From Parapedobacter sp. (GTDB lineage Bacteria; Bacteroidota; Bacteroidia; Sphingobacteriales; Sphingobacteriaceae), in the NCBI RefSeq assembly GCF_035556095.1, contig NZ_DATMFT010000016.1, positions 53,508 through 117,507 on the forward strand: a stretch of 64,000 nucleotides of DNA, in the 5' to 3' direction. The notes under the pieces are model-generated. The model did not search any database. It saw only the letters and a list, made by a program, of their open reading frames with translations, and had not been told where the DNA came from. The translations under genes were made by a program, and so were the position numbers. Positions 1 through 39,837 of the stretch are shown here, piece by piece; positions within the stretch are counted from its first letter, which is position 1; every line of letters starts with the position of its first letter.

Positions 1-23
1 TCGACTGCGAGGCTCGATTGTAT

Positions 24-81
24 AAAAGTATTCAGTGAGTGCCAATCCGGCCTCACCCTATGGCTGTACAAGCAGCCTCAA
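24..81 (-). ncRNA. tracrRNA-like structured element, copy 1 of 3
   Basis: 58-nt element nearly identical to 1370..1427. On the minus strand it reads TTGAGGCTGCTTGTACAGCC-ATAGG-GTGAGGCCggattGGCaCTCAC-TGAATACTTTT, i.e. two hairpins plus a U-rich tail. It is followed (minus strand) by ATACAATC, then the window ends. Confidence 0.45.
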
Positions 82-145
82 ATAATGCTCCCAAATAGGT
101 TTGAAAAATTTGTGAATCGGAATCAATATTCATAAATTTGTTTCT

Positions 146-376
146 ATGGAATTAAATGTAAAATTAGGTTTCAATGAACTACTGTCTGCAATTAGAAGTT
201 TGCCGGATAGTCAATTGGCTTTACTGAAAAAGGAACTGGATAAACCAGTAACCTTAGCGGTTCAGCCAAATAAGGCTCTTAAAGAACTGTTGCTAAGCGG
301 GCCTGTTTTTGAAAAGGAACAACTTGCCTCTATTGCAGAAGCCCGAAAATCCATCAATCAAAGGCGGAATCCCTAA
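146..376 (+). CDS. small antitoxin-like protein (VapB-type partner of the PIN toxin)
   Basis: 76-aa ORF ending 5 nt before the PIN-domain ORF. The size and position are typical of a type II antitoxin. No motif was recognised directly. Confidence 0.5.
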   Translation: MELNVKLGFNELLSAIRSLPDSQLALLKKELDKPVTLAVQPNKALKELLLSGPVFEKEQLASIAEARKSINQRRNP

Positions 377-381
377 TCCTT

Positions 382-747
382 TTGGATACATCTATTCTTA
401 TTGATTATTTCCGGAAGAAAGACAAAACCAGAATCCGTCTATATGAATTAACCGATCATTACGAAGGGTTTGTTATTTCAGTTATCACTGAATTTGAGAT
501 TTACGTTGGTGCAAAAGATGACCAATTGCCGTTTTGGACACGTCTTTTAAAAGAGATTCCCGTGATTCCCCTTGATTCGTCAATTGCCGAAATTGCGGTA
601 GGCCTCAACAATCAATTGAAAGCATCCAAAAACCAAATTGCCATTGCAGACCTATTCATAGCCTCAACAGCGCTTTCTTTGGGAGTACCATGCGCTTCGC
701 TTAATCGCAAACATTTCAGCCGGTTAAAAGACCTCACTATCATTTAA
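382..747 (+). CDS. vapC: PIN-domain toxin, VapC family
   Basis: 121 aa. N-terminal xDTSILIDYF with a conserved Asp, TEFEIY with a Glu, and IAIADLFIASTA with an Asp give a PIN-like acidic residue pattern. TTG start as given in the ORF track. Confidence 0.75.
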   Translation: MDTSILIDYFRKKDKTRIRLYELTDHYEGFVISVITEFEIYVGAKDDQLPFWTRLLKEIPVIPLDSSIAEIAVGLNNQLKASKNQIAIADLFIASTALSLGVPCASLNRKHFSRLKDLTII

Positions 748-792
748 TGAACAACTCTTCCCTACCCTGAACAAGGTTAAAGACGGTACCCC

Positions 793-817
793 GTCTGATG
801 TCTGGCGTCTGATGTCT
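793..817. repeat. GTCTGAT-type heptad block 1, fused to a variant array repeat
   Basis: GTCTGAT GTCTGGC GTCTGAT GTCT with strict 7-nt period. It sits directly next to the variant repeat at 824..856. Confidence 0.7.
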
Positions 818-1033
818 AAAAAACATTATACCTTTCAGAATGGGGTCTGTAACACCAAGCTTTTTATAGGCTACAAAAGTATCAGTTGTATATACCTTTC
901 AGAATGTGGTCTGTAACACCGCCGAGGCAATTAGAATCCCGCTCCAGGTAGTTGTATATACCCAGCTGATAGGAACACTACCCAGTAGCCAGTTGTATAT
1001 ACCTTTCAAATGGCATAACTCGATCCGAGCCGC

Positions 1034-1065
1034 GTCTGATGTCTAGTGTCTGGCGTCTGATGTCT
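1034..1065. repeat. GTCTGAT-type heptad block 2
   Basis: GTCTGAT GTCTAGT GTCTGGC GTCTGAT GTCT. It is followed by the variant repeat at 1071..1103. Confidence 0.7.
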
Positions 1066-1239
1066 CAAAACACTATACCTTTCAAATTGGGGTAGTTAAC
1101 ACCCTCAGAAATTGTAGCCGCAAGACTCTTAGTGTTCTATATACCTTTCAAATTGGGGTCTGTAATACCTAAATAGAGCGACGCTTGACGTTTTTGTTGC
1201 ATGTACCTTTCCAAAATTGGGTGTCCACACCGCTCTTCT

Positions 1240-1270
1240 TCTGATGTCTAGTGTCTGACGTCTAATGTCT
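1240..1270. repeat. GTCTGAT-type heptad block 3
   Basis: TCTGAT GTCTAGT GTCTGAC GTCTAAT GTCT. It is followed by the variant partial repeat at 1276..1300. Confidence 0.65.
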
Positions 1271-1369
1271 CCAAACAATATACCTTTCAAATTCGGTAGC
1301 CAACAAAAAAATCCGCGCCCATCAACAAAATCCACGTCATCCGCATTCCAATAAGCTCGTAACAAATAA

Positions 1370-1427
1370 AAAAGTATTCAGTGAGTGCCAACCCGGCCTC
1401 ACCCTATGGCTGTACAAGCAGCCTCAA
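1370..1427 (-). ncRNA. tracrRNA-like structured element, copy 2 of 3
   Basis: Same 58-nt element as 24..81, with one loop difference. It separates the two parts of the repeat array. Confidence 0.5.
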
Positions 1428-1488
1428 TTATTAAATAACCTTTGTGCTCAATGATACCGTCTTACGGCTTTATAATTAATCTGGCGGG

Positions 1489-1747
1489 GTTGTATATATC
1501 TTTTTACTTTAGAAATTGCGTATGCCTTTCAAATTGGGGTCTGTAATACCACAATGCACTAAATCCAAAATACTTTATATGTTGTATATACCTTTCAAAT
1601 TTGAATCCGTAACACCTCCGCTCGTGACGATGTTGCGGTCGGATTAGCTGTATATACCTTCAAATTGAAATCTGTGACACCCTTTTGGCTATTCATATCA
1701 CAAACATCGCTGTTGTATATACCTTTCAAAAAGGGCTTTGGAACAAT
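1489..1747 (-). CRISPR. degenerate CRISPR-like array, proximal part (5 repeat units, about 4 guides)
   Basis: Repeat units at 1489-1500 (12 nt), 1518-1550, 1581-1616, 1648-1681 and 1712-1747 (only the GGTATATACAAC-side half is conserved). Spacers at 1459-1488 (putative), 1551-1580, 1617-1647 and 1682-1711. Further very degenerate units may lie at 1787-1858. Confidence 0.7.
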
Positions 1748-1871
1748 CGTTGACTTAATAAAAAACTCGCTTTCAACTGTATATCTTCCAGGATTAATGT
1801 CAATTTGATACCCGAAAGGTTGTAGATACTCCAGCCGAGAGACATCGTGTTGTGTATAAATCTTAAAATAA

Positions 1872-1930
1872 AAAAGTATTCAGTGAGTACTTTCTTAAGT
1901 CTCACCCTACGGCTGTACAAGCAGCCTCAA
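1872..1930 (-). ncRNA. tracrRNA-like structured element, copy 3 of 3 (nearest the Cas12f-like gene)
   Basis: Same flanks and hairpin 1 as copies 1 and 2. The inner stem of hairpin 2 changes from GCC/GGC to ACT/AGT, which is compensatory, and the single-nt bulge is kept. It lies 70 nt downstream of the Cas12f-like stop codon, between the gene and the array. Confidence 0.55.
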
Positions 1931-1950
1931 AAATTTCAAAGAACTATTTT

Positions 1951-1992
1951 AGTCGTAAGTCGTAAGTCATCAGTCGTAAGTCAACAGTCAAC
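1951..1992. repeat. AGTCGTA-type heptad block
   Basis: AGTCGTA AGTCGTA AGTCATC AGTCGTA AGTCAAC AGTCAAC: six 7-nt units. They start 8 nt past the stop codon of the minus-strand Cas12f-like gene. Confidence 0.7.
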
Positions 1993-1999
1993 TCGCCAC

Positions 2000-3094
2000 T
2001 TACTCCTCAATCACATTAATCCCCGCCTTCTTCGCCTTGTAGGCAATCTTTTCTTTCAACCCGTAGTAGCTCCAATTGCGGAGCAGGAACTCCTCCTCCT
2101 TCGCCACTTCTTCCTTTTGCTGCTGGTTCACCAATAGCAGCGTTCCCGCTTCGGACTTCAGGCACAGGTCGATCAGCCGCCTGCTGTACAGGTGCAGCCG
2201 GCTGTCCACATATTTCTTTTCCTTCGCATCCCAGTCGTCCAGGCTTTTCAGTTTGCGCTGGCGGCCCTTGCCAGACCGGTTGTACGTAGACCCCCGCTGC
2301 AGGCGGTGCCGTGCGGCCTGTATGGCCAGCCGCCGGTGCAGGAACTCCTCCTTGTTGCCGATCTGGAACTGTGCCTTGCCCACCTTCATCACGATGGGGT
2401 GTTCGATGGAGAGCGATGCCTCGGCGATGACCGAATCGTTCAGCTGATGCGCATCGCGCTCCATCTCAAAGGCCGCCAGTAAGTACAGCTTACCCTTGTC
2501 GATTTTCAGCGAACTGGCGCAGAGTTTCAACGTACCCGCGATGTTGCGCTGTATCAGCACGCGCTTGTCCGTTTTGTCCTTGCCGAGGTAGGTCTTGAAC
2601 GGGATTTTGAACAACGTAAACCGGAATTCGCGGTGCTTCTCGTCGGCCACGAATTTCAGCGACTTGCCCGAAAAGGGTAGCGGAATATTGCGCTTGTAGT
2701 TGCGCAGCGATTTCTCCCCCTTCCAGTAGGCGGTACGCTCGGTATTGTACACGCTGGTCAATGAATTATTCAGGTTGGAAAAAATTTCAGAAGGCATCTT
2801 ACCAAGCAGCTTACTGGACAGTACGCGGTAGGTGGTATTCATCCGCGAGGTGTTCAGGATGCCCTCCTCATCCTTGGCGCGGTCGGCCAGCTTCACCTTC
2901 ACCTCGTCGGTAAAGTAAATCAGATCTTTCACCCGATCCTGCACATACAGGTTCGTGAAAATGAGGTTGGCCGCCTGGAAAGCCAGGAACTGCCATTCAT
3001 ACAGCTGCTTGTAGTGGGCATCTTTTTGCGCTTTGTCTTCGCAATCCACATACACCTGTATTTTCCGCGTCAGGATGATGGTTTTCTTTTCCAT
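2000..3094 (-). CDS. miniature Cas12f-like protein, predicted nuclease-dead and C-terminally truncated (dCas12f-like)
   Basis: 364 aa. The segments TIILTRKIQVYV, NIPLPFSGKS..FKIPF, VIAEASLSIEHPIV, GTLLLVNQQQK and LLRNWSYYGLKEKIAYKAKKAGINVIEE are collinear with my recollection of Un1Cas12f1 (TITKTLKLRIV; NFPIPL..IKIPF; IIGGIDVGVKSPLV; GTVQMENLESM; RLRGFWPYAEMQNKIEFKLKQYGIEIRKV). The RuvC-I Asp and RuvC-II Glu positions are non-acidic. The ORF ends before the Zn-finger/RuvC-III region. It is adjacent to the repeat array and the tracr-like RNA. Confidence 0.75.
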   Translation of the reverse strand: MEKKTIILTRKIQVYVDCEDKAQKDAHYKQLYEWQFLAFQAANLIFTNLYVQDRVKDLIYFTDEVKVKLADRAKDEEGILNTSRMNTTYRVLSSKLLGKMPSEIFSNLNNSLTSVYNTERTAYWKGEKSLRNYKRNIPLPFSGKSLKFVADEKHREFRFTLFKIPFKTYLGKDKTDKRVLIQRNIAGTLKLCASSLKIDKGKLYLLAAFEMERDAHQLNDSVIAEASLSIEHPIVMKVGKAQFQIGNKEEFLHRRLAIQAARHRLQRGSTYNRSGKGRQRKLKSLDDWDAKEKKYVDSRLHLYSRRLIDLCLKSEAGTLLLVNQQQKEEVAKEEEFLLRNWSYYGLKEKIAYKAKKAGINVIEE

Positions 3095-3097
3095 GGT

Positions 3098-3916
3098 TTA
3101 GGCCGATTGTTTCGCTTTATTGATGACCGCATAGGCCTGCACGAAGAGCGACTTCACCCGTGTGTCGTCCAGTTGCAGCGCCGCGGCGATTTCCTCAAAG
3201 GAATACTGCAGGTCGTACCGCATGGCCAGCACCTGCGCCTGCTCTTCGGTGAGCATGCCTTCGGCGATGAGTGGTTTGGTGCGGGTGGCGCTATCCAACT
3301 TGGTCGTGTCCGCGAGGGCAGCTTTCAGGTTGGCAATGCATTGCTCCACGCGTTGGGCAACCTCGTAATCCGAGATGCCGCCGAGGTGGTAGGCTATCCG
3401 TTCGTAGTTAAAGCTGTACCGCAGGCACAGCCGAAGAAATAGCTGCTGCTGGTCGGTCAGGTTGGGCAACAGTCGGTTGACCTGCGCCAGCTGCCGTTGT
3501 TTTTCTGCTTCCAGTTGTTCGAGATATACGGCGTCCTCCTCGGCTTCGTCCTCCAGTTCGTTACCCAGCATAAATTCCTGGAAATCTTCGATGCCATCCA
3601 GCCGCAGCATGCTACGGTGGAAACGGTTGAGGCTCTTCCGGTAGTAGGCCATGCCCGCTTCGCGGAGTTGCTGGCCGAGGAACTCGTGCAGGTGGGCTAC
3701 ATCGCGTATGACGTCGCGCATGAGCCACAGGCGGAGAAATCCCTCCTGCGCAATGGTATTGCCCACCATATCGTCCTTAACGAACCGCTCGGCCCGCCAT
3801 GCGTAGTGGTCGTAATGGGCGCGATAGAAATAATTCAGTCCGGTTTCGTCGCCCGTCTTGAACCGATGGAATGCCTCGGTCGCATTTTTTCGTGTTTGGC
3901 GATTGGTTTTCAACAT
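3098..3916 (-). CDS. ECF-type sigma-70 family factor with an extra C-terminal sigma4-like HTH
   Basis: 272 aa. Region 2-like NTIAQEGFLRLWLMR. Region 4-like LTDQQQLFLRLCLRYSFNYERIAYHLGGISDYEVAQRVEQCIANLK. A second similar HTH reads LTEEQAQVLAMRYDLQYSFEEIAAALQLDDTRVKSLFVQA. The stop codon is 3 nt upstream of the Cas12f-like start. Confidence 0.8.
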   Translation of the reverse strand: MLKTNRQTRKNATEAFHRFKTGDETGLNYFYRAHYDHYAWRAERFVKDDMVGNTIAQEGFLRLWLMRDVIRDVAHLHEFLGQQLREAGMAYYRKSLNRFHRSMLRLDGIEDFQEFMLGNELEDEAEEDAVYLEQLEAEKQRQLAQVNRLLPNLTDQQQLFLRLCLRYSFNYERIAYHLGGISDYEVAQRVEQCIANLKAALADTTKLDSATRTKPLIAEGMLTEEQAQVLAMRYDLQYSFEEIAAALQLDDTRVKSLFVQAYAVINKAKQSA

Positions 3917-4227
3917 AATCCGGTTCTTGGTTTAAAAATTTTGAAATAGATATCTCCCTAACAACAATGAGTCGCTATTTAGGGACTTAGGCTATCCGCT
4001 GTCTCTGGGAGAACGTGGGATGTTGGCGTGGGCGGATGCTATTCGGGCGAGCACTTTACGGTGGCCAACAGGCTCCGGAAGTGACGGTGCGTTCTTGATG
4101 TGTAGTCTGGTTGCTTTTTCACGATCTTGTATAATTTGGTCCTCTTTGGTGAAACAAAGGTATGTGTTTTATTTTTATTAAACAAATATGTTTAGTGTGA
4201 ATTTCAAACATTTCCCTTGTTTGCCGA

Positions 4228-4452
4228 ATGGCAATAGATATTCAAACATTCAAAACCCAGTTGGGCCAGCGTATCCGGGTGCTTAGGGAACGCCGTGGAC
4301 TTACCCAGATGGAGCTTGGGGCATTGATGGATAAAGATTTCCAGGCAATCAGCCGGATGGAAAAGGGGCGGGTCAATCCGTCGGCTTATCAAGTGTATGT
4401 GCTGGCGGGAGCGCTCGGCGTGCCTATCGAGGAGTTTTTTGATATGAAGTAA
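4228..4452 (+). CDS. XRE-family helix-turn-helix transcriptional regulator
   Basis: 74 aa. LGQRIRVLRERRGLTQMELGALM...ISRMEKGRVNPS is a typical Cro/C1 HTH. It is divergent from the sigma/Cas12f-like operon. Confidence 0.8.
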   Translation: MAIDIQTFKTQLGQRIRVLRERRGLTQMELGALMDKDFQAISRMEKGRVNPSAYQVYVLAGALGVPIEEFFDMK

Positions 4453-4548
4453 ACCCATTTGCACCGTAACTAAATTTGGCGTACCTTTGCGGCCGTTAAT
4501 TATTTTTTTATTGTTTCATTAAGTTCACGCTTTAATATTATTCAAGTA

Positions 4549-4827
4549 ATGTATTTAAGTAAAGAGTACAAAACGGGCATTTTCGCTGAATTTGCAGGAA
4601 ATGCAACCAACACCGGTTCCGCGGAAGGACAGGTGGCGTTATTTACCAAACGTATTGCGCACCTCACGGAGCACCTGAAATCGAATCGCAAAGATTTCGC
4701 AACCCAGCGTTCATTGCAGAAGCTGGTCGGTAAACGCCGGGCGTTGTTGAAATACCTTTTCCATAAGGACATCGCACGCTACCGTGCCATCATCAAGGCA
4801 TTAGGTCTGCGCGACATCATCAAATAA
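4549..4827 (+). CDS. rpsO: 30S ribosomal protein S15
   Basis: 92 aa. TGSAEGQVALFTKRIAHLTEHLKSNRKDFATQRSL..LVGKRRALLKYL..DIARYRAIIKALGLR matches the S15 pattern. A TAaaTTTG box lies upstream near 4473. Confidence 0.9.
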   Translation: MYLSKEYKTGIFAEFAGNATNTGSAEGQVALFTKRIAHLTEHLKSNRKDFATQRSLQKLVGKRRALLKYLFHKDIARYRAIIKALGLRDIIK

Positions 4828-4850
4828 TTGCAAGTAGCGTTTTCAATAGA

Positions 4851-4883
4851 AAAGCCATCCGCCAACCAGCAGATGGCTTTTTT
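4851..4883 (+). terminator. intrinsic terminator after rpsO
   Basis: AAAGCCATC - 12-nt loop - GATGGCTTT followed by TTT. Confidence 0.7.
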
Positions 4884-5049
4884 GATGCCCAAGACAGCGC
4901 AGGTTATGTGACGAGACGTGTTACCTTTTGGGTTTATCAGGCATTTGCCAACGGGAAATTGCCACTTTTTCCATTCGAATGCAACGGCTAACTAGGTGTG
5001 GAGCCGGGGTCGCCGGTGTTGACATACACAAAAAAGTGACTCACTTCAA

Positions 5050-6681: not shown

Positions 6682-7584
6682 ATGACCGATCGTATAAAGA
6701 CGTATGGATTACCACCGGGAGGTGAAGTCCTCCACGATTTTCAAATCTATGAGGTAAAGGGTGGAGAAATAGATAATAAGCATTATCCACATAAAACCGA
6801 TCGGCCGCACCGGCATAGCTATTATGAAGTATGCGTTTTTATCGATGACGGTGGTAAACACGAGATTGATTTTGTGACTTATTCAATCCAATCCAATAGT
6901 GTCCATTTTCTTTCCCCGGGGCAGGTGCACCGTATTTTTAGAAATGAAGATTACCACGGTTACCTGATTGTTTTTTCCAGTGAATTTTTTCCATTGGGGT
7001 CAACGCGGCAGGAAGATCCACTCTTTTATTTCCCGTTTTTCAATAACCCGACCATGCTGCCCATCTTGGGTTTAGACGAAAGCTCTTTCGAAGAGATCTT
7101 ACTAATTGTCCGTCAAATGGAGAAAGAGAGTCGCCTCAAACAGCAGTCGCATAGTGAGATTTTGAGAACCTATCTGCAGTTGCTGCTTTTAAAATGCAAG
7201 CGACATTATATGTGGAAATTTGCGGAAAAGCAAAAAATGAATACGCCCGATTTTTCGCAAGTCCAGCAGTTCAATATGCTTGTTGAGAAAAAGTTCACGG
7301 AGCATCTCCTGATTCAAGATTACGCAGAAATGCTGGGTACATCGCCCGCGATCCTCAATAGGTCCGTAAAAAAAATAATCGGTAAAACAGCCGCGGAGAT
7401 CATCGTCGACAGGCTTATCTTACAAGCCAAACGTTTGTTGATTTATACCGATCTTTCCAACAAGGAAATTGCTTTCAGCTTAAACTATACAGACCCTTCC
7501 TATTTTACACGTACGTTTAAAAAGAAGACGGGCAAGAGCCCCTCCCAATTCAGAAAGGAGCTAAACGAAAAGTACCAGCATTAA
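6682..7584 (+). CDS. AraC-family transcriptional regulator (cupin sensor + HTH)
   Basis: 300 aa. The C-terminal IQDYAEMLGTSPAILNRSVKK...AFSLNYTDPSYFTRTFKKKTGKSPSQFR is an AraC double HTH. Confidence 0.85.
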   Translation: MTDRIKTYGLPPGGEVLHDFQIYEVKGGEIDNKHYPHKTDRPHRHSYYEVCVFIDDGGKHEIDFVTYSIQSNSVHFLSPGQVHRIFRNEDYHGYLIVFSSEFFPLGSTRQEDPLFYFPFFNNPTMLPILGLDESSFEEILLIVRQMEKESRLKQQSHSEILRTYLQLLLLKCKRHYMWKFAEKQKMNTPDFSQVQQFNMLVEKKFTEHLLIQDYAEMLGTSPAILNRSVKKIIGKTAAEIIVDRLILQAKRLLIYTDLSNKEIAFSLNYTDPSYFTRTFKKKTGKSPSQFRKELNEKYQH

Positions 7585-18739: not shown

Positions 18740-21700
18740 ATGAATTCTTATGTAGACCTTAAAGGCCGTACCCGACTGCCTTTGGTAAATCGGGTACTGC
18801 GTAATCTCGTAGTAACCACGGTGGCGGTAGTGGCAGCGATGCCCTACGTGTCGGCGGGAATGTTTAGCCCTGCTGATGTCACCTTACACCGACTGGAAAC
18901 GTCGGTACGGAAGCCCAACAGTATGTTGCAGGATACGGAGGTTCGCGGTACCATACGCGACTCGACAGGATCATTGCTTACCGGTGTATCCATTCACGTT
19001 AAAAACCGGACGTCTATCGGTACGACCACCGATCTCAACGGACGCTATTTATTGAGTGTTCCGGCTGGATCCACGCTGACGTTCTCAATGGTAGGGTTCG
19101 AGACCCAAGAGATAGCGGTGGGTAACCAAGAAGTCATCGATGTGGTGCTTGTCGAATCCTCATCCATGTTGGATGATGTGGTCGTGACCGCTTTTGGTGG
19201 CGCGGTAAAGCGCACGGACATGATCGGCGCCATTACGTCGGTTAAGCCCTCAGATCTCAAAGTGCCATCCAGTAACCTGACCACCGCTTTGGCGGGACGG
19301 GTTGCCGGTATGATTGCCTATCAACGAAGCGGCGAGCCAGGTATGGACAATGCGGATTTCTTTATCCGTGGTGTAACCACATTCGGTTATAAAAAAGACC
19401 CGCTGATCCTGATTGACAACCTCGAAGTGACCACCACGGAATTGGCCCGTCTTCAACCGGATGACGTAGCGAGTTTCTCGATCATGAAAGATGCCACTGC
19501 AACGGCGCTGTATGGTGCCCGGGGGGCCAATGGAGTCATCCTGATTACGACCAAAGAAGGTACCGAAGGGAAGGTGAAAATTAATGTGCGGCTGGAAAAC
19601 TCGATCTCGGCACCTACACGCAACGTGGAGCTGGCCGATCCCGTTACTTATATGGAGTTGCATAATGAAGCCGTGAAAACGCGGGATCCGTTGGGGGAAC
19701 AGCCTTATTCCCAAGGGAAGATAGATAACACAAAGGCCGGAACGAATGCGATAGCCTACCCAGCGACTGATTGGCGGAAAGAACTTTTCAAGGACTATAC
19801 CATGAACCAACGGTTCAACCTCAACCTTTCCGGCGGTGGGAGCGTTGCCCGTTACTACGTGGCTGGAGCGGTTACCAAAGATAATGGCGTATTACAGGTA
19901 GATCCGCGTAATAACTTCAATAGTAACATCGATCTGACGAGTTATAACCTTCGCTCGAACGTCAATGTTAACCTGACGAAATCCACCGAATTGATTATCA
20001 GGATGAATGGCAACTTTGACGATTACACCGGGCCGATAGCGGGGGGAAAAGCGATGTACCAAATGGTGATGCGTACCAATCCGGTTCTTTTTTCCGCCTT
20101 TTATCCACCGGGCGAAGATTATCAGCACGTTACCCATATCATGTTTGGAAATTATGAGGAAGGTAATTACCTGAATCCTTATGCGGAAATGGTGAAAGGG
20201 TACCGTGATTATTCACGCTCGTATGTACTGGCCCAGTTGGAGTTGAAACAAGACCTGGCTTTCCTCACCGAAGGCTTGCAATTCCGTGCGTTGATGAATA
20301 CGAACCGGACCTCGTTTTTTGATGTCAACAGAGCCTATTCGCCATTCTACTACTCGTTAAACGGTTATAACCGGCGTGCGGACACCTATAGCTTATCGCT
20401 CATCAATGAGGATGGTGGACGGGAATACCTCGACTATAATGAAGGGCCGAAGGAGGTGAGTTCTATCTTTTACCTGGAGTCTGCGTTGAGCTACAACCGG
20501 ACATTCGGCGAAAAACATGGTTTGAGCGGCATGTTGGTATACATCATGCAAGAGCGGCTGTCGGCCAACGCGGGGAGTCTGCAGCTCTCCCTCCCGTATC
20601 GGAATATAGGTTTGTCGGGTAGAACAACGTATGCATACGATAGCCGGTATTTCTTCGAGTTCAATTTCGGCTATAACGGATCCGAGCGGTTTTACAAAAA
20701 CAACCGTTTCGGCTTTTTCCCGTCTGCCGGGTTAGCATGGACGATTTCCAACGAAAAATTCTTTGAACCGATTACGTCGACGGTCAACAACCTGCGCGTA
20801 CGGGCCACTTACGGCTTGGTTGGTAACGATGCAATCGGGAGGCCGGAAGACCGGTTTTTCTATTTGTCGAATGTAGACATGGAGGCCGGTGGAGGCACGT
20901 TCGGCCGGGACAATGGCTATTCACGGTCGGGTGTTAACGTAACGCGGTACGCCAATTCGGACATCACTTGGGAGCAAGCCGAGAAGATGAATGTTGCTTT
21001 GGAAGTCGGACTGTTCAAGAAATTGGATATAACCGCAGATTTCTTTAAAGAACACCGGACCAATATCCTGATGGAACGGTCGCACATCCCATCAACTATG
21101 GGGCTTGGCACCGTCAATGTTATGGCCAATGTGGGTGAAGCCACAGGCCGGGGGGTCGATCTGTCGGCCAATTATTCGCATAGTTTTATCAATGGGTTGT
21201 GGCTTCAAGGAATGGGCAATTTCACGTTTGCGCAAAGTGCTTTTAAAGTATATGAGGAGCCGGAATATAGCGAGTCGTGGCAGTCGCGTGTTGGCTATTC
21301 CGTCAATCAGGAATGGGGCTACATTGCCGAGCGCTTATTTGTTGATGAGCATGAGGTGGCCAATTCGCCGAGGCAGAATTTCGGTGAGTATATGGCTGGC
21401 GATATCAAGTATCGTGACGTCAATCGGGATGGCCAGATTACCGAGTTGGATATGGTTCCCATTGGCTTTCCGACGATGCCCGAAATTGTATATGGATTTG
21501 GTCTTTCCGCAGGATGGAAGAACCTTGATTTCAGTGTGTTCTTCCAAGGCCTGGCTAGGGAGTCATTCCGGATCGGCGTTGCCCAAACGGCGCCTTTTCT
21601 CAGTCATCGATACAGTCCCTCCGAATTGCCGGGGATAACGCTTCAGAATCAGCTGCTCAAAGCGTATGCGGACGACCATTGGTCTGAAGACAACCGGAAC

Positions 21701-21994
21701 CTCTACGCATTGTGGCCCCGGTTAACTGCCACCACCAATACAAACAATACCCAACGCAGTACGTGGTTTCAGCGCGACGGCAGCTTCCTACGGTTGAAGC
21801 AGGCTGAAATCGGATATACGCTGCCCCAGGGCCTCACTGATCGGGTGTGGCTGAATAGCTTGCGTTTTTATGTGAGCGGGACGAACCTGCTATCGTGGAG
21901 TAAGTTTAAACTATGGGACGTGGAGATGGCGGACAATGGCTTGGGCTACCCCGTACAGCGCGTTGTCAATTTGGGTTTACATGTTTCATTATAA
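18740..21994 (+). CDS. SusC/RagA-family TonB-dependent outer-membrane transporter
   Basis: 1084 aa. Carboxypeptidase-regulatory-like VRGTIRDSTGSLLTGVSIHVKN, a plug (DATATALYGARGANGVILITTK), and a C-terminal beta-barrel ending in ..NLGLHVSL. Confidence 0.9.
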   Translation: MNSYVDLKGRTRLPLVNRVLRNLVVTTVAVVAAMPYVSAGMFSPADVTLHRLETSVRKPNSMLQDTEVRGTIRDSTGSLLTGVSIHVKNRTSIGTTTDLNGRYLLSVPAGSTLTFSMVGFETQEIAVGNQEVIDVVLVESSSMLDDVVVTAFGGAVKRTDMIGAITSVKPSDLKVPSSNLTTALAGRVAGMIAYQRSGEPGMDNADFFIRGVTTFGYKKDPLILIDNLEVTTTELARLQPDDVASFSIMKDATATALYGARGANGVILITTKEGTEGKVKINVRLENSISAPTRNVELADPVTYMELHNEAVKTRDPLGEQPYSQGKIDNTKAGTNAIAYPATDWRKELFKDYTMNQRFNLNLSGGGSVARYYVAGAVTKDNGVLQVDPRNNFNSNIDLTSYNLRSNVNVNLTKSTELIIRMNGNFDDYTGPIAGGKAMYQMVMRTNPVLFSAFYPPGEDYQHVTHIMFGNYEEGNYLNPYAEMVKGYRDYSRSYVLAQLELKQDLAFLTEGLQFRALMNTNRTSFFDVNRAYSPFYYSLNGYNRRADTYSLSLINEDGGREYLDYNEGPKEVSSIFYLESALSYNRTFGEKHGLSGMLVYIMQERLSANAGSLQLSLPYRNIGLSGRTTYAYDSRYFFEFNFGYNGSERFYKNNRFGFFPSAGLAWTISNEKFFEPITSTVNNLRVRATYGLVGNDAIGRPEDRFFYLSNVDMEAGGGTFGRDNGYSRSGVNVTRYANSDITWEQAEKMNVALEVGLFKKLDITADFFKEHRTNILMERSHIPSTMGLGTVNVMANVGEATGRGVDLSANYSHSFINGLWLQGMGNFTFAQSAFKVYEEPEYSESWQSRVGYSVNQEWGYIAERLFVDEHEVANSPRQNFGEYMAGDIKYRDVNRDGQITELDMVPIGFPTMPEIVYGFGLSAGWKNLDFSVFFQGLARESFRIGVAQTAPFLSHRYSPSELPGITLQNQLLKAYADDHWSEDNRNLYALWPRLTATTNTNNTQRSTWFQRDGSFLRLKQAEIGYTLPQGLTDRVWLNSLRFYVSGTNLLSWSKFKLWDVEMADNGLGYPVQRVVNLGLHVSL

Positions 21995-22006
21995 ATGGAG
22001 TAGATC

Positions 22007-23905
22007 ATGAAAGAAATTAAAAGAATAGGAATCGGTGTTTTATTGTTGTTGGGTATTTCCTGCAACAGCTACCTTGACGTGGTTCCTGATAACGTGGCAA
22101 CCGTGGATCATGCATTTAACATGCGCAATACCGCAGAAAAATATCTATTTACCTGTTATCGTTACCTCCCGTCACATGCGAGTTTAGGTGATAACCCTGC
22201 CTTTGCAACTGGCGACGAATTCTGGTTTTCCAATTCGTTTCTCCAGTTCCACTCGGCACCGGGATGGCAGATTGCCCGAGGTAACCAGAGCATTGTCTCC
22301 CCGATTTTAAACTATTGGGACGGCGTCAGTCAACCGTTCAAAGGTATCCGCGACTGCAATATCTTCATCGAAAATATTGGTAGGGTACCCGACATGCTGG
22401 ATGAAGAAAAGGACCGGTGGATTGCGGAGGCGAAGTTTTTAAAAGCCTATTATCATTTTTGGTTGATGCGGATGTATGGGCCGATTCCGATCATCCGCGA
22501 AAATCTGCCGATTTCCGCGTCGGTTCAAGAGGTCCGTGTGGCGCGGGAGCCGATCGACGATTGTGTGGCCTATATTGTGGAGCTGTTGGACGAAGCCGTA
22601 GTGAACCTGCCTGACGTCATTTCGGATGAATTGACAGAACTGGGACGTATTACGAAAACCATTGCCTTGTCGGTGAAAGCGAAAGTGTTGGTGACGGCAG
22701 CCAGTCCACTATTCAATGGAAATAACGAGTATGTAGGATTCGCTGGGCCCGACGGACGGGAGTTGTTCAACCAAACGTATTCGACCGATAAGTGGCAACA
22801 GGCAGCGGATGCCTGCCGGGAAGCGATCGATGCATGTCATGAGCTGGGTATGAAATTATACACGTTTGAGCTCGGCATCAGTCAGTTTTCGCCGTCGGAA
22901 GAGACCATCACCCAGATGAGTATACGGAATAGCGTAACGGAGCGATGGAATTCAGAGATTATTTGGGGCAATACAAATAGTACCGCTGTGGCTTTGCAGC
23001 GGCAAGCGACACCGCCGCTGGACCCTACAAACAGCGTAAATGCCAACACACTGGGAAATATGGCGCCGCCAATCAAAATCGCGGAGCAGTTCTATTCGAA
23101 AAACGGGGTGCCCATCGATGAAGATGTGACCTATGATTACGCAGGGCGTTTTGAATTGCGTGAGGCAGATGAAGCAGATAAGTATCATCTGCAAACGGGA
23201 TATACGACTGTTGGGCTCCATTTTGACCGCGAAGAGCGGTTTTATGCCAGCTTGGCGTTCGACGGCGGACTGTGGTATGGCCAGGGCCGATTAGATGATA
23301 ACGATCAGTGGACCATCCAGGCTAAATTGGGGCAAGCACAAACGCGTGTATCCAATAACCGTTTCTCCGTAACCGGATACTGGCCCAAAAAACTGGTTAA
23401 TTATGAAAACATCATCGGTGCGGGAAACACCTATACCGTCCAATACTACCCTTGGCCTGTAATGCGGCTGTCGGATTTGTATTTATTGTACGCCGAGGCA
23501 TTAAACGAACTGAATGAACAACCGAGCGACGAAACCTATGAATACTTAAATAAGGTTCGCGAGCGGGCGGGTTTGCCGACGGTCCAGGATGCATGGACAA
23601 ACTTCTCCAGACAGCCGGATAAATTCACCACACAGGTGGGGCTGCGGAGTATCATCCAGCAAGAGCGGCTGAACGAGCTGGCTTTTGAAGGGAAACGATT
23701 CTGGGACCTGAGGAGATGGAAACGTGCACATATCGAGTTGAATAACCTGATCACCGGTTGGGACATTGACCAAGAGAATCCGGAAACATACTATCGCCAA
23801 CGTGTATTATTCAACCAGACATTTATGATGCGTGATTATTTCTGGCCCATCCGGGAATCCAACCTGATTGTGAATCGGAATCTGGTGCAGAATCCGGGTT
23901 GGTAA
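22007..23905 (+). CDS. SusD/RagB-family nutrient-binding lipoprotein
   Basis: 632 aa. A lipobox (GISC) and the C-terminal ERLNELAFEGKRFWDLRRW...NPGW signature. Confidence 0.9.
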   Translation: MKEIKRIGIGVLLLLGISCNSYLDVVPDNVATVDHAFNMRNTAEKYLFTCYRYLPSHASLGDNPAFATGDEFWFSNSFLQFHSAPGWQIARGNQSIVSPILNYWDGVSQPFKGIRDCNIFIENIGRVPDMLDEEKDRWIAEAKFLKAYYHFWLMRMYGPIPIIRENLPISASVQEVRVAREPIDDCVAYIVELLDEAVVNLPDVISDELTELGRITKTIALSVKAKVLVTAASPLFNGNNEYVGFAGPDGRELFNQTYSTDKWQQAADACREAIDACHELGMKLYTFELGISQFSPSEETITQMSIRNSVTERWNSEIIWGNTNSTAVALQRQATPPLDPTNSVNANTLGNMAPPIKIAEQFYSKNGVPIDEDVTYDYAGRFELREADEADKYHLQTGYTTVGLHFDREERFYASLAFDGGLWYGQGRLDDNDQWTIQAKLGQAQTRVSNNRFSVTGYWPKKLVNYENIIGAGNTYTVQYYPWPVMRLSDLYLLYAEALNELNEQPSDETYEYLNKVRERAGLPTVQDAWTNFSRQPDKFTTQVGLRSIIQQERLNELAFEGKRFWDLRRWKRAHIELNNLITGWDIDQENPETYYRQRVLFNQTFMMRDYFWPIRESNLIVNRNLVQNPGW

Positions 23906-29689: not shown

Positions 29690-30300
29690 GCGGACAACGT
29701 ACTAGCTGTTTGCGGTACTACAACGGCGGGTTGAAATATGGCAATGGACTGCTGATGTACTGCATTGAATAGTTGCAGTATTACCATGTGCTATTGACAT
29801 ACCACAATAGACTTTTGATATACTGCAATGCAACAAATACATACCACGAGAGGCTGCCGGCATACGACCACGCACTGTTGATATACTACAGTATGATGGC
29901 AACACATTACAATGGGCCGTAGATATACTGCAGTGCGCTATTGATATACGACGTGAGGCTATTGACATACCGCAACAGGCCGCTGATATACTACATTGAG
30001 CTGTTGAAGTATTACAATACGCAAATGACCTACTACAATAAGCTGTTGATGTACTGCAATGCGCTTTCGATATATTACAATGGGCCGCTGGTATAACACA
30101 ATAAGCTGTTGATGTACTGCAATGCGCTTTTGATATATTACAATGGGCTTTTGATATATGTCAATGGGACGTTGACATATGGCGATGGACCGATGCGGTA
30201 TGCCAACAGCCCATTGCGGTACAACTTTAGGGTGTCGCGGTACCGCAAAAGCCCATTGCGGTACCGCAAATCACCATTGACCCTTGCTATGCGCCCAGGT
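29690..30300. repeat. 21-nt tandem repeat tract A (about 29 units, consensus TATACTGCAATGNGCTNTTGA)
   Basis: Strict 21-nt phasing of a (T/C)ATAC anchor across about 600 bp. It includes a 63-bp higher-order duplication (30040-30102 vs 30103-30165). The last units change to CGGTACCGCAAAAGCCCATTG. Confidence 0.85.
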
Positions 30301-31440: not shown

Positions 31441-32031
31441 CTAGCGAAAATCGGGCATTATCGGGCATATTGGGTTCCATTTCGGGCATTTAAGGTGGTA
31501 TTTATCGGGTGTATTGTGCAACATGCCCGGCTTTCCGGTACTGGGGAAAAGTTTCCCGGTACCGGGAAAATGTTACCCGTCGCTGGAAAGGTGCAAACCT
31601 GTATCGGGGAGGTTGTACCCGGTGCTGGCAGAAAGTTTTCCGATACAGGGAAAATACGAACCCATACCGGAGAGATGTTACCTGGTACGGGGAAAAAGCT
31701 TTCCAGTACGGGGAAAAAGCTTTCCAGTACGGGGGGGAAGCTTTCCGATACAGGGAAAATACGAACCCATACCGGAGGAGAGTTACCCGACACAGGGAGA
31801 ATGTTAATCCATACCGGTAAAGCGCCACCCCGTATCGGGGGAGCGCTTACCAGTATGGGTTCGACAAAGAAGGATATCGATTTAACACGGACCGATATAG
31901 GTGCGTTGTATTCTGATGCGGGTTATTGTTTCTCCGGTATCGGTACATCGTCCCCCGGTAAGGGGGCGAGGTTTCCCGGTGCAGGTCGGCGACTCCGCTG
32001 TGTTAATTTATCCGGCTACCTGATCGTTTAG
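31441..32031. repeat. 21-nt tandem repeat tract B (about 28 units, consensus GGTACGGGGAAAAAGCTTTCC)
   Basis: 21-nt phasing of a GGTAC/GATAC anchor. Five overlapping ORFs, three on the plus and two on the minus strand, run through it because the units lack stop codons. It starts 2 nt after the 111-bp direct repeat. Confidence 0.85.
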
Positions 32032-34345: not shown

Positions 34346-36505
34346 ATGCGAAAATATTTAATCGTTGGCTTGCTTACCGGATGGCTTTGTGCGGGTTGCC
34401 ATAACCCCGATGTAGGCAATGACGACGTGCTGACATACGTCGACCCTACAATCGGCGGTGTGGGCTTGATCTTGGAGCCAACGCGGCCCCTTGTGCACCT
34501 CCCTAATAGCATGTTGCGGGTGCACCCATTGAAAAAGGATGAGTTAGACGATCGGATATCGGGCTTCCCACTTACCGTTGTGTCCCATCGCATCGGTTGG
34601 GCATTTTCTTTTCTGCCGGTATTCACAGCTGATAACCCTTGGCAGTCGAATATTGTTATACACCGTCAGGAAGCACACCCCTACAGTTACGAGGTGGTGG
34701 ATGCAACTTCTTATAATAGCGTGGCGGTTGCGCCAAATGAAAAGAGCGGTGTCTTTCGGATCACGAATGCCGACCAGTCGAGGACACACCGATTGCGGTT
34801 TTCGATTATTAATGCGACCGGGTTTGTGGAGTCGCCGAATGACCATGCCTTTTCAGGTGAAGAAGACTATAACGGGATGAAGGTGTATTTCTATGGCACG
34901 GTTGACGGTACGGTAACGAAGGTGGAAACTGAGGGAGCCGACAGCCGAAAAAACTTAATGGCTACCGTCGAATCGGCGAATGGTGTGTTGGAACTGCGAT
35001 ACGGTATTTCCTTCATCAGTGTCGACCAGGCAAAGACAAACCTGGAACAGGAAATCGGAGACCGCGATTTCGCTGCTACGAAGGCAGGGGCCATGGATGT
35101 TTGGACGAAGGCACTATCCAAGATAAAGGTAAAAGGCAGCGATAAAGACAAGCGTGTGTTTTATACGGCCCTGTACCGCACCTTGGAGCGTATGGTGGAT
35201 ATCAATGAGCATGGGCGCTATTACAGTGCGTTCGACTATCAGGTGCATGAATCGGACGAACCTTTCTATATGGACAATTGGGTATGGGATTCGTATATCG
35301 CCCACCATCCGCTGAATATGATACTGGACCCGGAAAAGGATCAGACCATGATTCGTTCTTACGTGGAGATGTATCGCCAAAACGGCTGGATGCCCTCGTT
35401 TGCGGTGGTTTTTGGCGACTGGCCAGCGATGGTGGGTAACCATGCATCTGCGTGGATGGCTGACGCATGGGCGAAAGGCTTGCGCGATTTTGACGTAGCG
35501 ACCGCTTATGAAGGTCTTCGCAAGAACTCGTTGGAAGCGACGCTGATTCCTTGGCGAAATGGTCCACCCAGTGAGCTGGATGATTTTTTCAACGAACATG
35601 GCTATATGCCAGGGTTGGCTCCAGGAGAGCCGGAGACGGTCGACCGGGTTGATCCCAACTGGGAAAAGCGCCAGGCGGTGTCGGTGACACTGGAGAACAG
35701 CTTTAGTGATTGGTGTATCGCCCAACTCGCGGAACCCGCCGGACATGTCGATGAAAAAGAGCTTTTCTTGGACCGTTCCCAGTTTTACCGGAATGTGTTC
35801 CGGGAAGACAAGGGCATGGTATGGCCAAAAAATGCGGCAGGTGAATGGATTGAGCCGTATAACCCGAGCCTTTCCGGCCGGGAGTACTTCACCGAGGTCA
35901 ACGCGTATACTTACAACTGGCATGTGAAGCACGATTTAAATGGGCTATTTGCGCTTATGGGAGGGAAACAGGCTGCTGAGGCGAAGTTGGATCAGTTGTT
36001 CCGTGAGGACCTCGGCTTGTCCAAATGGAAATTCTGGGCAACCCAACCGGATGCTTCGGGGTTGGTGGGGCAGTTCGTCATGGGAAATGAACCCAGTTTA
36101 CACATCCCATACCTGTATAACTACCTCGGTGCGCCCTGGAAAACGCAGAAGCGTATCCGTATGCTGTTAGATACATGGTTTACCGACAATGTATTCGGAA
36201 TGCCTGGTGATGAAGACGGCGGAGCGATGTCGGCCTGGGTGGTGTTTTCGATGATGGGCTTCCTTCAGGTAACCCCCGGCGTGCCTACTTACTCAATCGG
36301 CAGCCCATCGTTTGAAGAGGTTAGCATCCAGTTACCCAATGGCAATGAATTTAAGGTAGTAGCTAACAATAATTCGACGGAGAACGTGTACATCCAGGAG
36401 GCGAAACTCAATGGCCAACCCTTGGATGAACTGTTTTTTACGCATGAGCAGCTGCTGGAAGGCGGTGTGCTGGAACTGGAGATGGGCGATAAACCTAGGA
36501 AATAG
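34346..36505 (+). CDS. GH92-family alpha-mannosidase (lipoprotein)
   Basis: 719 aa. GNEPSLHIPYLYNYLG and GMPGDEDGGAMSAWVVFSMMGF are GH92 signatures. CAGC lipobox. Confidence 0.85.
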   Translation: MRKYLIVGLLTGWLCAGCHNPDVGNDDVLTYVDPTIGGVGLILEPTRPLVHLPNSMLRVHPLKKDELDDRISGFPLTVVSHRIGWAFSFLPVFTADNPWQSNIVIHRQEAHPYSYEVVDATSYNSVAVAPNEKSGVFRITNADQSRTHRLRFSIINATGFVESPNDHAFSGEEDYNGMKVYFYGTVDGTVTKVETEGADSRKNLMATVESANGVLELRYGISFISVDQAKTNLEQEIGDRDFAATKAGAMDVWTKALSKIKVKGSDKDKRVFYTALYRTLERMVDINEHGRYYSAFDYQVHESDEPFYMDNWVWDSYIAHHPLNMILDPEKDQTMIRSYVEMYRQNGWMPSFAVVFGDWPAMVGNHASAWMADAWAKGLRDFDVATAYEGLRKNSLEATLIPWRNGPPSELDDFFNEHGYMPGLAPGEPETVDRVDPNWEKRQAVSVTLENSFSDWCIAQLAEPAGHVDEKELFLDRSQFYRNVFREDKGMVWPKNAAGEWIEPYNPSLSGREYFTEVNAYTYNWHVKHDLNGLFALMGGKQAAEAKLDQLFREDLGLSKWKFWATQPDASGLVGQFVMGNEPSLHIPYLYNYLGAPWKTQKRIRMLLDTWFTDNVFGMPGDEDGGAMSAWVVFSMMGFLQVTPGVPTYSIGSPSFEEVSIQLPNGNEFKVVANNNSTENVYIQEAKLNGQPLDELFFTHEQLLEGGVLELEMGDKPRK

Positions 36506-36685: not shown

Positions 36686-39600
36686 ATGAAGCTAACCGCT
36701 ATTTTATTGCTATTTTTTACATTTAAGGTAAGTGCGGATTGTTGCGCTATGAGTGCAATAGTCGGTGTGCCTTCAAGTTATGACCCTCCTGGCAATCCAA
36801 TACCTCCTATTCAAATAAAAGGAAAGGTTGTGGATAGTGAAGGGAATCCGCTACAGGGTGTGTCTGTAAACGTGGTAGGTACTACGGTAGGAAGCACCAC
36901 CAATAGTGAGGGATTTTATGTCATCAGTATCGTGGATAATTCGTCTGTTGTACTGGAGTTTTCCAGCGTAGGATTTCAACGAAAAAGTGTGACAGTTGGA
37001 ACCCAAACGGAGATCAATGTTACGCTGGAAGAAGATGTCGCGGGGCTGGAAGAGGTTGTGGTGGTGGGATATGGGACACAGAAGAAGTTAACGGTTACGG
37101 GTGCGATTTCGTCTGTAGGGTCGGCGGATCTGATCAAATCTCCAAATGCTAGTGTTGCGAATACGCTTGCCGGACGCGTTACCGGTTTGGCAACGGTACA
37201 GTATTCAGGTCGTCCAGGAGGCGACGATCCTATAACTTATATCCGCGGAATCGGATCACTTACGTCAGCGGCTTCAGCACCGCTTACACTTGTAGATGGG
37301 GTAGAACGGCCGTTTACCCAATTAGACCCCAATGAAATTGAGTCGGTATCTGTATTGAAAGATGCGTCTGCTACCGCCGTGTTCGGTGTGCGGGGAGCCA
37401 ATGGAGTAATCATCGTGACAACGAAGCGGGGAACCGAAGGGCCTGCCAAAATCAGCGTATCGGCTTCTGCTGGCCTTCAACAGCCATTGAGACTTCCTGT
37501 TTTTGTAGACAGCTATACGCATGCAAAGATGTATACAGAAGCTCAACAAAATGACGATCCGAATGCAGTACTGAAGTTCAGCCCAGAGGCCCTGGAAGCA
37601 TTCCGGACCAACTCGGATCCGATCATTTATCCAAATACCGATTGGGTGAATTATATATTGAAGCCTTCCGCATTTCAAACGCAAGAAAATGTCAATATTT
37701 CGGGCGGAACAAAGGCGGTCAGGTATTTTGTTTCACTGGGGTATCTCAAGCAAGACGGCCTGTTTAGGATATTTGACCTGCCGGATAATAATAACTACAG
37801 TTATAACCGATATAACTACCGGGTAAATTTGGATATCGATGTAACTAAAACGACTACCCTTTCCTTAACAACCGGCGGAAGAAGTGAGTTTCGTAACGAG
37901 CCCTTGGCCGATGAGCCGCAATTCAGTATCTGGCGGAATATCTATTTTGCCCAGCCTTATAGAGGAATAGGGATTGTAGACGGAAAGCATATACAAAGCG
38001 ATCCCCGCTATATTTCAGGTGAAACACGTGATGCGCTTAACGGTTACTATGGGAAGGGTTTCCAAAATGCACTCACGAATCCGCTCAATTTTGACTTGAT
38101 GTTAAATCAGCAGCTGGACGCCCTCGTAAAGGGGCTTTCCTTCAAAGTTAAAGGTTCTTATAACGGAAGCTACTCTTTTACCAAAATCAGAAACTCCAGT
38201 CGGGCAACGTACTTGGCCAGCTATTTACATGATTTAGATCCTACCGAACCGGATGATAAAACGGTTGTCTACCGGAAAATCGGGGAAGATGGGACATTAG
38301 GTTATGCCGAGCGTTACGACAAAGCCCGGGATTGGTATTTCGAAACGGCTTTTTCTTATGACCGAATGTTTGAGGCACACCGCGTCACCGGACTCTTGCT
38401 TTACAATCAGAGCAAAACGTTTTATCCGACGTCGAATGTGGATATCCCACGGGGATACGTTGGGCTTGTAGGACGGATAACCTACGACTATCAATCAAAG
38501 TATCTGCTGGATTTAAATATGGGGTATAACGGTTCCGAAAATTTTGCTCCTGAAAGGCGATTTGGATTATTTCCAGCCATATCAGCAGGCTGGGTGGTTT
38601 CCGAAGAGAAATTTATGAAAGCGTATGCTCCGTTTATTGAGTACCTGAAAATAAGGGGTTCATACGGAGTTGTGGGTAATGATCGGATGGGGAATAGCCG
38701 GTTCCTTTATTTACCGGACAGTTATTCGGCGAATTCGGGTGGCTATAGTTTCGGGGTCAATGTTCCCCAGAATCAGATCGGCGCATCGGAAGGCAAGGTT
38801 GGAAATCCGCTCGTCACATGGGAAAAGTCGAAGAAAAAGGACATTGGCCTGGATCTTACGATGCTGAATGGGAAAATTGCCGTCGTGGCGGATTATTTCA
38901 CTGAACATCGCGATAATATCCTTACGACACGTCAGACGGTTCCCGGCATTCTGGCTATTAACCTTCCAGCAGTAAATATCGGCGTCGTTGACAATCATGG
39001 GTATGAATTACAAATAAAGTGGAGGGATAACATCGGTGCCTTTAACTACATGATTAGCCCGAATATGTCCTTCGCTAGAAACAAAATTGTTTTTATGGAT
39101 GAGACACCGCAGCGGGAATCGTACCTTTTGCGCACGGGAAATCGCGTCAACCAACCATTCGGCTATGTGTTTGATGGCTTTTGGACCGAAACAGATGTGG
39201 CTAATATCGGCAATTTCCCAAATGCAAATTACGAGGCCAAACCGGGGGATTTACGGTATAAAGATCTGAATGGCGATGGGCAGATAAATGTTGATGACCA
39301 GCGACCAATTGGCTTTCCGGACTATCCTGAATATGTTTTTGGATTAACGATCGAAATGCAGTATAAGGGATTTGATTTGCATATGATGTGGTCTGGAGCA
39401 ACCAACGTATCAAGGGCATTTCAAGGGTCGTTCCAATTGCCGTTTGGGCCTACACATGGGTTCGGGCTTATGAAGTACATGGCCGATGGGCGGTGGACTC
39501 CGGAAACGGCTGCCTCGGCAACGTATCCGCGGATGACTTTCTTGGGAATCGAGAACAACATGAAATATAGTGATTATTGGTTGAAGGACGCTTCGTATGC

Positions 39601-39817: not shown

Positions 39818-39837
39818 CATCATAAAATTTCAAGGTG

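Follow-up and report, generated by a model that had tools for sequence, protein, structure and literature searches.

The closest described relatives of the locus analysed here are the rpoE-dcas12f systems, a family that Altae-Tran et al. (PNAS 2023, PMC10691335) predicted under the name Sigma-TnpB. Hoffmann et al. (Nature 2026, PMC13472631) demonstrated RNA-guided transcription for it by experiment, and structures 9n9c, 9n9m, 9n9o and 9n9q come with a companion structure paper (PMC12259091). Members of the published family target chromosomal promoters (PMC13472631), their guides being expected to match sites upstream of susCD, two-component or rpoE-dcas12f genes, and the Flagellimonas taeanensis (Fta) homolog was found by experiment to be an RNA-guided DNA binder with no nuclease activity (PMC13472631, PMC12259091). 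The present analysis concerns a 64,000-nucleotide (nt) stretch of a Parapedobacter sp. genome (contig NZ_DATMFT010000016.1, positions 53,508 to 117,507), termed the window, and in particular an open reading frame (ORF), dcas12f, which a preliminary description had presented as a Cas12f-like protein deprived of its catalytic residues and zinc finger and retaining a DNA-binding role without cleavage. The ORF very probably encodes the DNA-targeting subunit of an rpoE-dcas12f RNA-guided transcription system of Parapedobacter, a genus that is not named in the text of PMC13472631.

The window and Fta systems share a Cas12f-like effector of ~365 amino acids (aa) carrying the VIAEASLS replacement and the same C-terminal truncation, an operonic rpoE with a C-terminal domain, a nearby hth gene, a Bacteroidota host, and downstream guide RNA (gRNA) genes, candidates in the window, that lie on the same strand and place the guide at the 3' end. 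They differ in that the window host, Parapedobacter, belongs to the Sphingobacteriales, in the presence of three scaffold modules plus two arrays compared with the single gRNA of Fta, and at dCas12f residues N110 and K144 and sigma-E residue K255; the window system is, in addition, known from sequence alone. The gene itself is positioned as follows.

2000 to 3094, minus strand: dcas12f, nuclease-dead Cas12f homolog of 364 aa, intact from ATG to TAA

The dCas12f protein was aligned with five dead homologs of similar length and with ten longer relatives, all retrieved by HMMER search. Ser227, encoded by tcg on the minus strand (nt 2416-2414), occupies the column of the RuvC-I catalytic Asp (GxDLG) within the motif VIAEASLS, while Val322 (nt 2131-2129) occupies that of the RuvC-II catalytic Glu (AGxIxxE) within AGTLLLVNQ. 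The protein ends in ...KAGINVIEE, at the point where active relatives run on with P..TS.xC..CG...C..C...ADxNAAxNIA, a segment that comprises the target-nucleic-acid-binding (TNB) zinc ribbon and the RuvC-III Asp. HMMER alignments to the solved structures of active Al3Cas12f (9nzo and 9nzr) gave the same correspondences for Ser227, Val322 and the truncation. Of the RuvC Asp/Glu/Asp triad, the first two residues are replaced and the third motif is absent. The three Cys residues of the protein (18, 192 and 311) form no CxxC motif, and no Pfam match to TNB or OrfB was obtained even at E<=1, the search returning no TnpB or Cas12f family, while PF07282 (Cas12f1-like TNB zinc ribbon) was detected in all ten longer relatives and OrfB_IS605 in most of them. 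The replacements of Asp at about codon 227 and of Glu at about codon 322 had been placed by the preliminary description at exactly these nucleotides, and its statements that the Zn-finger/RuvC-III part is absent and that an intact ORF encodes a protein shorter than active forms hold equally, the difference from active relatives amounting to ~100-150 aa. On these alignments, dCas12f is a nuclease-dead Cas12f that lacks the TNB zinc ribbon and RuvC-III by C-terminal truncation.

Structural comparison places the protein beside the characterised family. The closest match was 9n9c_A, annotated 'Nuclease-deactivated Cas12f' (365 aa; E 4e-128 over residues 2-362, HMMER), and the protein is 54% identical to Fta dCas12f, which carries the same VIAEASLS motif (BLASTP). 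An AlphaFold2 model (mean pLDDT 81.6) retrieved 9n9m_A and 9n9c_A as top Foldseek hits (E about 1e-36), followed by active Cas12f and then by TnpB and Cas12k. The DNA-contacting residues M85, Y89, R90 and S106 are kept relative to Fta, as are the lid tyrosines (Y343/Y344, corresponding to Y344/Y345 in Fta). Active type V-F Cas12f proteins (Un1Cas12f1, 7l48; AsCas12f, 8j12; Al3Cas12f, 9nzo) display the common fold, the REC/WED/RuvC order and the RNWSYF/Y lid segment, and share with the window a repeat ending in ...CAAC and a likely pseudoknot between the scaffold and the 3' end of the repeat. In contrast with them, the window protein has a shorter REC and lacks both the Asp/Glu/Asp triad and the TNB zinc ribbon, while its locus has a sigma-factor partner, no detected anti-repeat of a trans-activating CRISPR RNA (tracrRNA) and no adaptation genes among the ORFs scanned.

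A protein ~100-150 aa short of its active relatives might be a decaying pseudogene or an assembly artefact, that is, an active Cas12f whose C-terminus was lost through a frameshift or premature stop, and a frameshift does occur in one ortholog, that of Parapedobacter indicus (locus L040, 6001-7090), which is 95% identical and has a stop after 150 codons in a locus 2 nt shorter; this apparent frameshift is either a real pseudogene or an assembly error. For the window gene such an origin is exceedingly improbable. When the C-terminal 115 aa from each of ten active relatives were used as tblastn queries and the downstream region was translated in three frames, the only match was the C-terminus of the ORF itself (2006-2185); past its stop, in 1..2000, the best E was >=16. 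Stops abound in all three downstream frames, none of which contains a TNB/RuvC-III-like segment. A word-indexed search returned 1052 homologs, the closest being a Parapedobacter soli protein (97% identical), and lengths of 363-366 aa prevail almost without exception among the best 120 clusters. The same substitutions and the same stop position are common to >100 homolog clusters of 363-366 aa, so the truncation is no chance feature. Relative to eight Parapedobacter orthologs taken from genomes, all of 364 aa, dN/dS was 0.02-0.054 wherever dS was unsaturated, from which it follows that purifying selection on dcas12f is strong. The architecture of the solved Fta protein is identical. A frameshifted continuation, which the preliminary description had named among the findings that would overturn its reading, was rejected for want of any downstream remnant, and a pseudogene origin on that ground together with the fixed stop, the low dN/dS and the like architecture of the solved homolog; the purifying selection that the description proposed to look for was found.

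The genomic surroundings of dcas12f, which the preliminary description had overlooked, contain the following features upstream.

3098 to 3916, minus strand: rpoE, sigma factor of the extracytoplasmic function type (sigma-E), 272 aa, with an extra C-terminal helix-turn-helix (HTH)-like domain at about residues 219-266
3917 to 4227: hth-rpoE intergenic region, 311 nt, with short inverted repeats within 50 bp of the hth start
4228 to 4452, plus strand: hth, 74-aa Xre-type regulator (Pfam HTH_3, E 8.5e-12), divergent from rpoE-dcas12f

The stop codon of rpoE lies 3 nt before the dcas12f ATG on the same strand, so the two genes are operonic. The sole PDB sequence match of the sigma factor was 9n9q_C, 'RpoE' (E 7.5e-37), over residues 16-266, which includes the C-terminal domain, and Pfam placed Sigma70_r4 on residues 222-261. 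Three of the four published dCas12f-contacting residues are kept in this domain, R233, F240 and F258 corresponding to R218, F225 and F243 (PMC12259091). Across 80 related loci, a sigma-E homolog was found upstream of dcas12f in 79, being adjacent and on the same strand in 76. The HTH protein is far less conserved than sigma-E across the same loci, as PMC13472631 likewise reports, and the placement of hth agrees with published rpoE-dcas12f loci (PMC13472631, PMC10691335). Inverted repeats within 50 bp of hth have been reported for the family (PMC13472631); in the window they read ATGTTT/AAACAT (4188-4211) and CAAACA/TGTTTG (4205-4223) and are possible candidate operator sites for the HTH protein, for which the evidence is weak because the repeats are only 6 nt long.

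A dead Cas12f might instead serve as an RNA-guided repressor that blocks RNA polymerase with gRNAs or CRISPR RNAs (crRNAs), the sigma factor being independent of it. Precedents exist both in TldR (Wiegand et al. 2024, PMC10705468) and in a CRISPR-associated dCas12f cluster proposed to repress efflux genes (PMC13472631); the window locus keeps CRISPR-like arrays, which have been tied to that separate, possibly repressive cluster (PMC13472631), and the outcome of binding would hinge on the position and orientation of the target. TldR proteins resemble the window protein in being naturally nuclease-dead, RNA-guided members of the TnpB/Cas12 lineage that exert transcriptional control. They descend directly from TnpB, however, are linked to fliC or oppF, and repress, whereas the window protein is of Cas12f descent and linked to sigma-E, and its homolog activates; its nearest active relatives are Cas12f proteins and its neighbour gene is rpoE, which sets it apart from TldR. 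Repression by the window protein is nevertheless unlikely: the protein clusters with sigma-E-linked dCas12f, with the Fta protein at the identity given above, the rpoE gene 3 nt away in the operon encodes a C-terminal domain of the dCas12f-binding kind, and the pairing of rpoE with dcas12f recurs throughout the related loci at the frequency already stated.

Downstream of dcas12f, the RNA region was read on the minus strand, 3' of the gene. It contains three copies of a two-hairpin P1-P2 scaffold module of ~50 nt (GAGGCUG-CUUGUA-CAGCC GUAGG GUGAG...CUCAC), at 1931-1881, 1428-1379 and 82-33, the first ~70 nt past the dcas12f stop. The elements in which they lie are listed below with the E values of the covariance model.

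1835 to 1931, minus strand: candidate gRNA 1 (g1), with the module at 1931-1881, a linker to 1849 and the guide at 1848-1835; E 9e-18
1379 to 1428, minus strand: second copy of the P1-P2 module, with a repeat-like 3' end ~85 nt on, at 1273; E 7e-18
1 to 82, minus strand: candidate gRNA 3 (g3), with the module at 82-33, truncated at the window edge; E 2e-18

Among 60 distinct module copies, 94.7% of cells are paired and 121 cells carry double changes, giving a covariation score of 0.412, compared with 0.141 for shuffled copies and <=0.12 for slid partners. The covariance model recovered exactly three copies in the window (E about 1e-18, the window copies being seed members) and 194 copies across the 80 related loci, all on the dcas12f strand. 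Loci of Parapedobacter, Olivibacter, Pedobacter and others likewise have a P1-P2 module directly 3' of dcas12f, and in many of the Pedobacter ones it runs into a compact RNA ending in ...UUGCAAUGG, followed by a conserved 14-nt sequence, which is the published gRNA layout. No Rfam family was found for the RNAs downstream of dcas12f.

In g1, the linker is U-rich and ends in ...UUAUACACAAC, and the 14-nt guide ACGAUGUCUCUCGG follows at 1848-1835 (as a search string, ACGATGTCTCTCGG). At ~97 nt, g1 falls within the 85-105 nt described for published gRNAs, which carry a 14-16-nt guide at the 3' end. Its guide recurs in P. deserti (locus L004) and P. composti (L005) as a conserved sequence and is predicted to contain a 3-bp hairpin, like the published P5. 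The 3' continuation of the second module copy is conserved in two related loci (L002 and L003). In g3, the module is followed by the segment UGAAUACUUUUAUACAAU and then by the guide CGAGCCUCGCAGUC(GA), which the window edge interrupts (14-nt search string, CGAGCCTCGCAGTC); in L004, L005 and L040 the module is likewise followed by related guides (AGAGYCUCG...). Changes in the P1 loop are matched by changes in the segment immediately 5' of the guide, TTGCA occurring with TGCAA in 17 of 18 cases and TTGTA with TACAA in 25 of 66, values that are confounded by phylogeny; this pattern suggests, within that limit of relatedness, a Cas12f-like pseudoknot between the P1 loop and the ...ACAAC segment.

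Several further observations concern these RNAs. A transcription terminator or a repetitive extragenic palindromic element was considered for the two-hairpin element and rejected, as the element continues into full Pedobacter gRNAs, covaries and is always on the dcas12f strand. Immediately 3' of g1 (1834-1760, minus strand) lies a partial inverted copy of the repeat core (ACCTTTC...CAAATTG) with a degenerate repeat 3' end, then GCGAGTTTTTT; the element is conserved in P. deserti and P. composti and might represent a terminator or the 3' portion of a longer transcript. Four Parapedobacter ortholog loci (L001, L003, L004 and L008, at ~7100-7300) carry a conserved insertion of ~170-190 nt, GTGGCTGAGCTATAATGGTG...CATTAGAGACAGA, between the motif GTTCTTTGAAAT and the first P1-P2 module, which is missing from the window and gave no Rfam match. 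The arrangement is different in Sphingobacterium loci (L011-L039 and others, ~3000-4900), where P1-P2 modules precede rpoE on its own strand and have no counterpart 3' of dcas12f; a TTGTT loop with no obvious ...ACAAC partner is seen in many of these modules, which may correspond to the hth-associated non-coding RNAs of PMC13472631.

Interspersed with the scaffold modules are two degenerate CRISPR-like arrays.

1489 to 1747, minus strand: array A, ~5 copies of a 36-nt repeat, some degenerate, with ~30-nt spacers
787 to 1308, minus strand: array B, ~8 repeat units, ending in a GACGG/CCGTC hairpin and then TTT

The 36-nt repeat reads GGTGTTACAGACCCCAATTTGAAAGGTATATACAAC on the minus strand and ends in ...GGUAUAUACAAC. 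Three units of array B have a variant 3' end (...GGTATAxTGTTTT), each followed by a heptad-periodic tract AGACATCAGACGCCAGACA... (787-819, 1035-1067 and 1240-1272, minus strand), for which no match was found elsewhere in the window or in related loci. Heptad repeats of the form (A/T)xGACTx (TRF period 7) also occur at 1950-1995, right after the dcas12f stop. An antitoxin-like ORF (146-376, plus strand) and a PIN-domain toxin (382-747, plus strand; Pfam PIN, E 2e-13) lie between array B and the third scaffold module, the pair being 93% identical over 671 nt in P. flavus (L001). On the transcribed strand, a search for a tracrRNA anti-repeat gave duplex energies with the 36-nt repeat no better than those of shuffled repeats.

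Arrays of this kind have a published counterpart in Sphingobacterium sp. DR205 (PMC13472631, Extended Data Figs 3d and 6f), where full-length gRNAs occur with discontinuous or vestigial CRISPR-like arrays whose repeat resembles the 3' part of the gRNA scaffold, as in the window, the comparison being with the published description only. The arrays of Parapedobacter orthologs are longer than those of DR205, with up to 29 well-kept repeat units at 66-nt spacing. The Sigma-TnpB clade of PMC10691335, which is the family of the window, consists of inactivated Cas12f1-derived effectors of Flavobacteriales, Chitinophagales and Sphingobacteriales that are linked to rpoE and to a regulator of the Xre type. 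Its CRISPR association is described there as lost, in contrast with the window and its Parapedobacter orthologs, which keep arrays and thus resemble an intermediate in the scenario of PMC10691335.

Spacers are mostly species-specific among Parapedobacter, with few exceptions. One array A spacer (1646-1617; search string TAATCCGACCGCAA) is identical at 28 of 30 positions in P. koreensis (L008) at a dS of about 0.9; other species have two more spacers in common. The well-kept repeat units and the mostly species-specific spacers of the orthologs have the look of array turnover, as in cleavage-independent immunity, in which spacers against phages or plasmids would direct the dead effector to silence or mis-transcribe invaders in the manner of Cas12m. 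Such a function is very improbable. The window ORFs that were scanned include neither cas1 nor cas2, none of 2.9 million viral contigs contains an exact 22-mer match to the three spacers searched, and the targets of the published family are chromosomal promoters (PMC13472631). At least three spacers are conserved between species despite a dS of about 0.9, a pattern more in keeping with fixed regulatory targets than with immune memory.

The rpoE-dcas12f reading raises a further idea about these arrays. Most published members of the family are described as reduced to single, fixed gRNAs. Parapedobacter arrays, by contrast, are well maintained and mostly species-specific, stand beside fused gRNAs and hold a few spacers constant across species. 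From this it is conceivable, though we consider it doubtful, that array repeat-spacer RNAs also program dCas12f-sigmaE, forming a natural, multiplexed, array-encoded CRISPR-activation regulon. The P1-P2 module might then act in trans through the pseudoknot between its loop and ...ACAAC, the regulon could be fitted to the susCD operons of polysaccharide-utilisation loci (PULs) of each species, and spacer gain may still be possible.

Taken together, sigma-E, hth and the gRNA/array region point to dCas12f as the targeting subunit of an RNA-guided transcription activator. By analogy with the Fta homolog, a dCas12f dimer would bind a gRNA of ~85-105 nt derived from the downstream region and made up of P1-P2, a linker ending in ...ACAAC and a ~14-nt 3' guide. 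The complex would recognise a short target-adjacent motif (TAM) and open an R-loop at chromosomal sites but leave the DNA uncut, since Ser227 and Val322 stand in place of the RuvC Asp and Glu and the protein lacks the RuvC-III/zinc-ribbon segment. Sigma-E, encoded in the same operon, would attach through its extra C-terminal domain to the truncated RuvC and in turn recruit RNA polymerase, initiation taking place at a fixed distance downstream of the target (~46 bp in Fta) with no conventional promoter. Retained DNA binding without cleavage, as first proposed for the ORF, is thus supported by the dead active site, the selection and the Fta homolog, but was an incomplete account: with sigma-E 3 nt upstream, hth and the downstream RNA region left aside, the context of a transcription activator was missed.

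Some observations weigh against this interpretation. Relative to Fta, two dCas12f contacts are changed (H110 to N110 and Q144 to K144), as is the fourth sigma-E contact (published H240, here K255; PMC12259091), so the TAM and details of the interface may differ. The boundaries of g1 and g3, and with them the gRNA ends, are placed by comparison of related loci. Multi-spacer arrays are retained, unlike in most published members, and are possibly used differently. When 16 window guides and spacers were searched against the 64-kb window (16 nt with <=3 mismatches, or 14 nt with a perfect 6-nt seed), matches were at chance level only. The window contains two SusC/SusD pairs on the plus strand (18740-23905 and 36686-41592; TonB-dependent receptor plus SusD_RagB) in surroundings of the polysaccharide-utilisation type, with a GH92 gene at 34346-36505 and sugar-processing enzymes, and the regions upstream of both pairs held no local guide matches above chance. 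A metagenome scan with the conserved spacer yielded one identical repeat-spacer copy, eight chance 19-mers and no target. A search of the window with 103 ortholog spacers likewise gave chance-level matches only. The targets presumably lie elsewhere in the genome. The identical copy resides on metagenome contig Ga0182745_1028964 (L084; 3.6 kb), whose repeat-spacer-repeat stretch is identical to array A, which indicates the same or a very close strain in that sample.

Elsewhere in the window, 21-nt tandem repeats occur at 29908-30188 and 31535-31841 (12 and ~3.6 copies; also a 105-nt period), within a 4.7-kb stretch that has no long ORFs. A weak, sub-threshold Rfam match to the S15 leader (4491-4605, plus strand; 21.9 bits, E 0.067) extends into the 5' end of an ORF resembling ribosomal protein S15 (4549-4827).

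A dead, truncated Cas12f is no longer surprising, as it defines a family whose prediction dates from 2023 and whose published characterisation followed in 2025-2026. To that family the Parapedobacter locus adds a so far uncharacterised Sphingobacteriales member, with 54% identity to the studied protein; by itself it opens no new question, and its only modestly unusual feature is the retention of true multi-spacer arrays. Its value is as comparative material, since fused single-guide RNAs, extra scaffold modules and CRISPR-like arrays occur together in a useful evolutionary intermediate. The locus could thus help to show how dual-RNA Cas12f collapsed into single-guide activators, and whether the arrays still program transcription.

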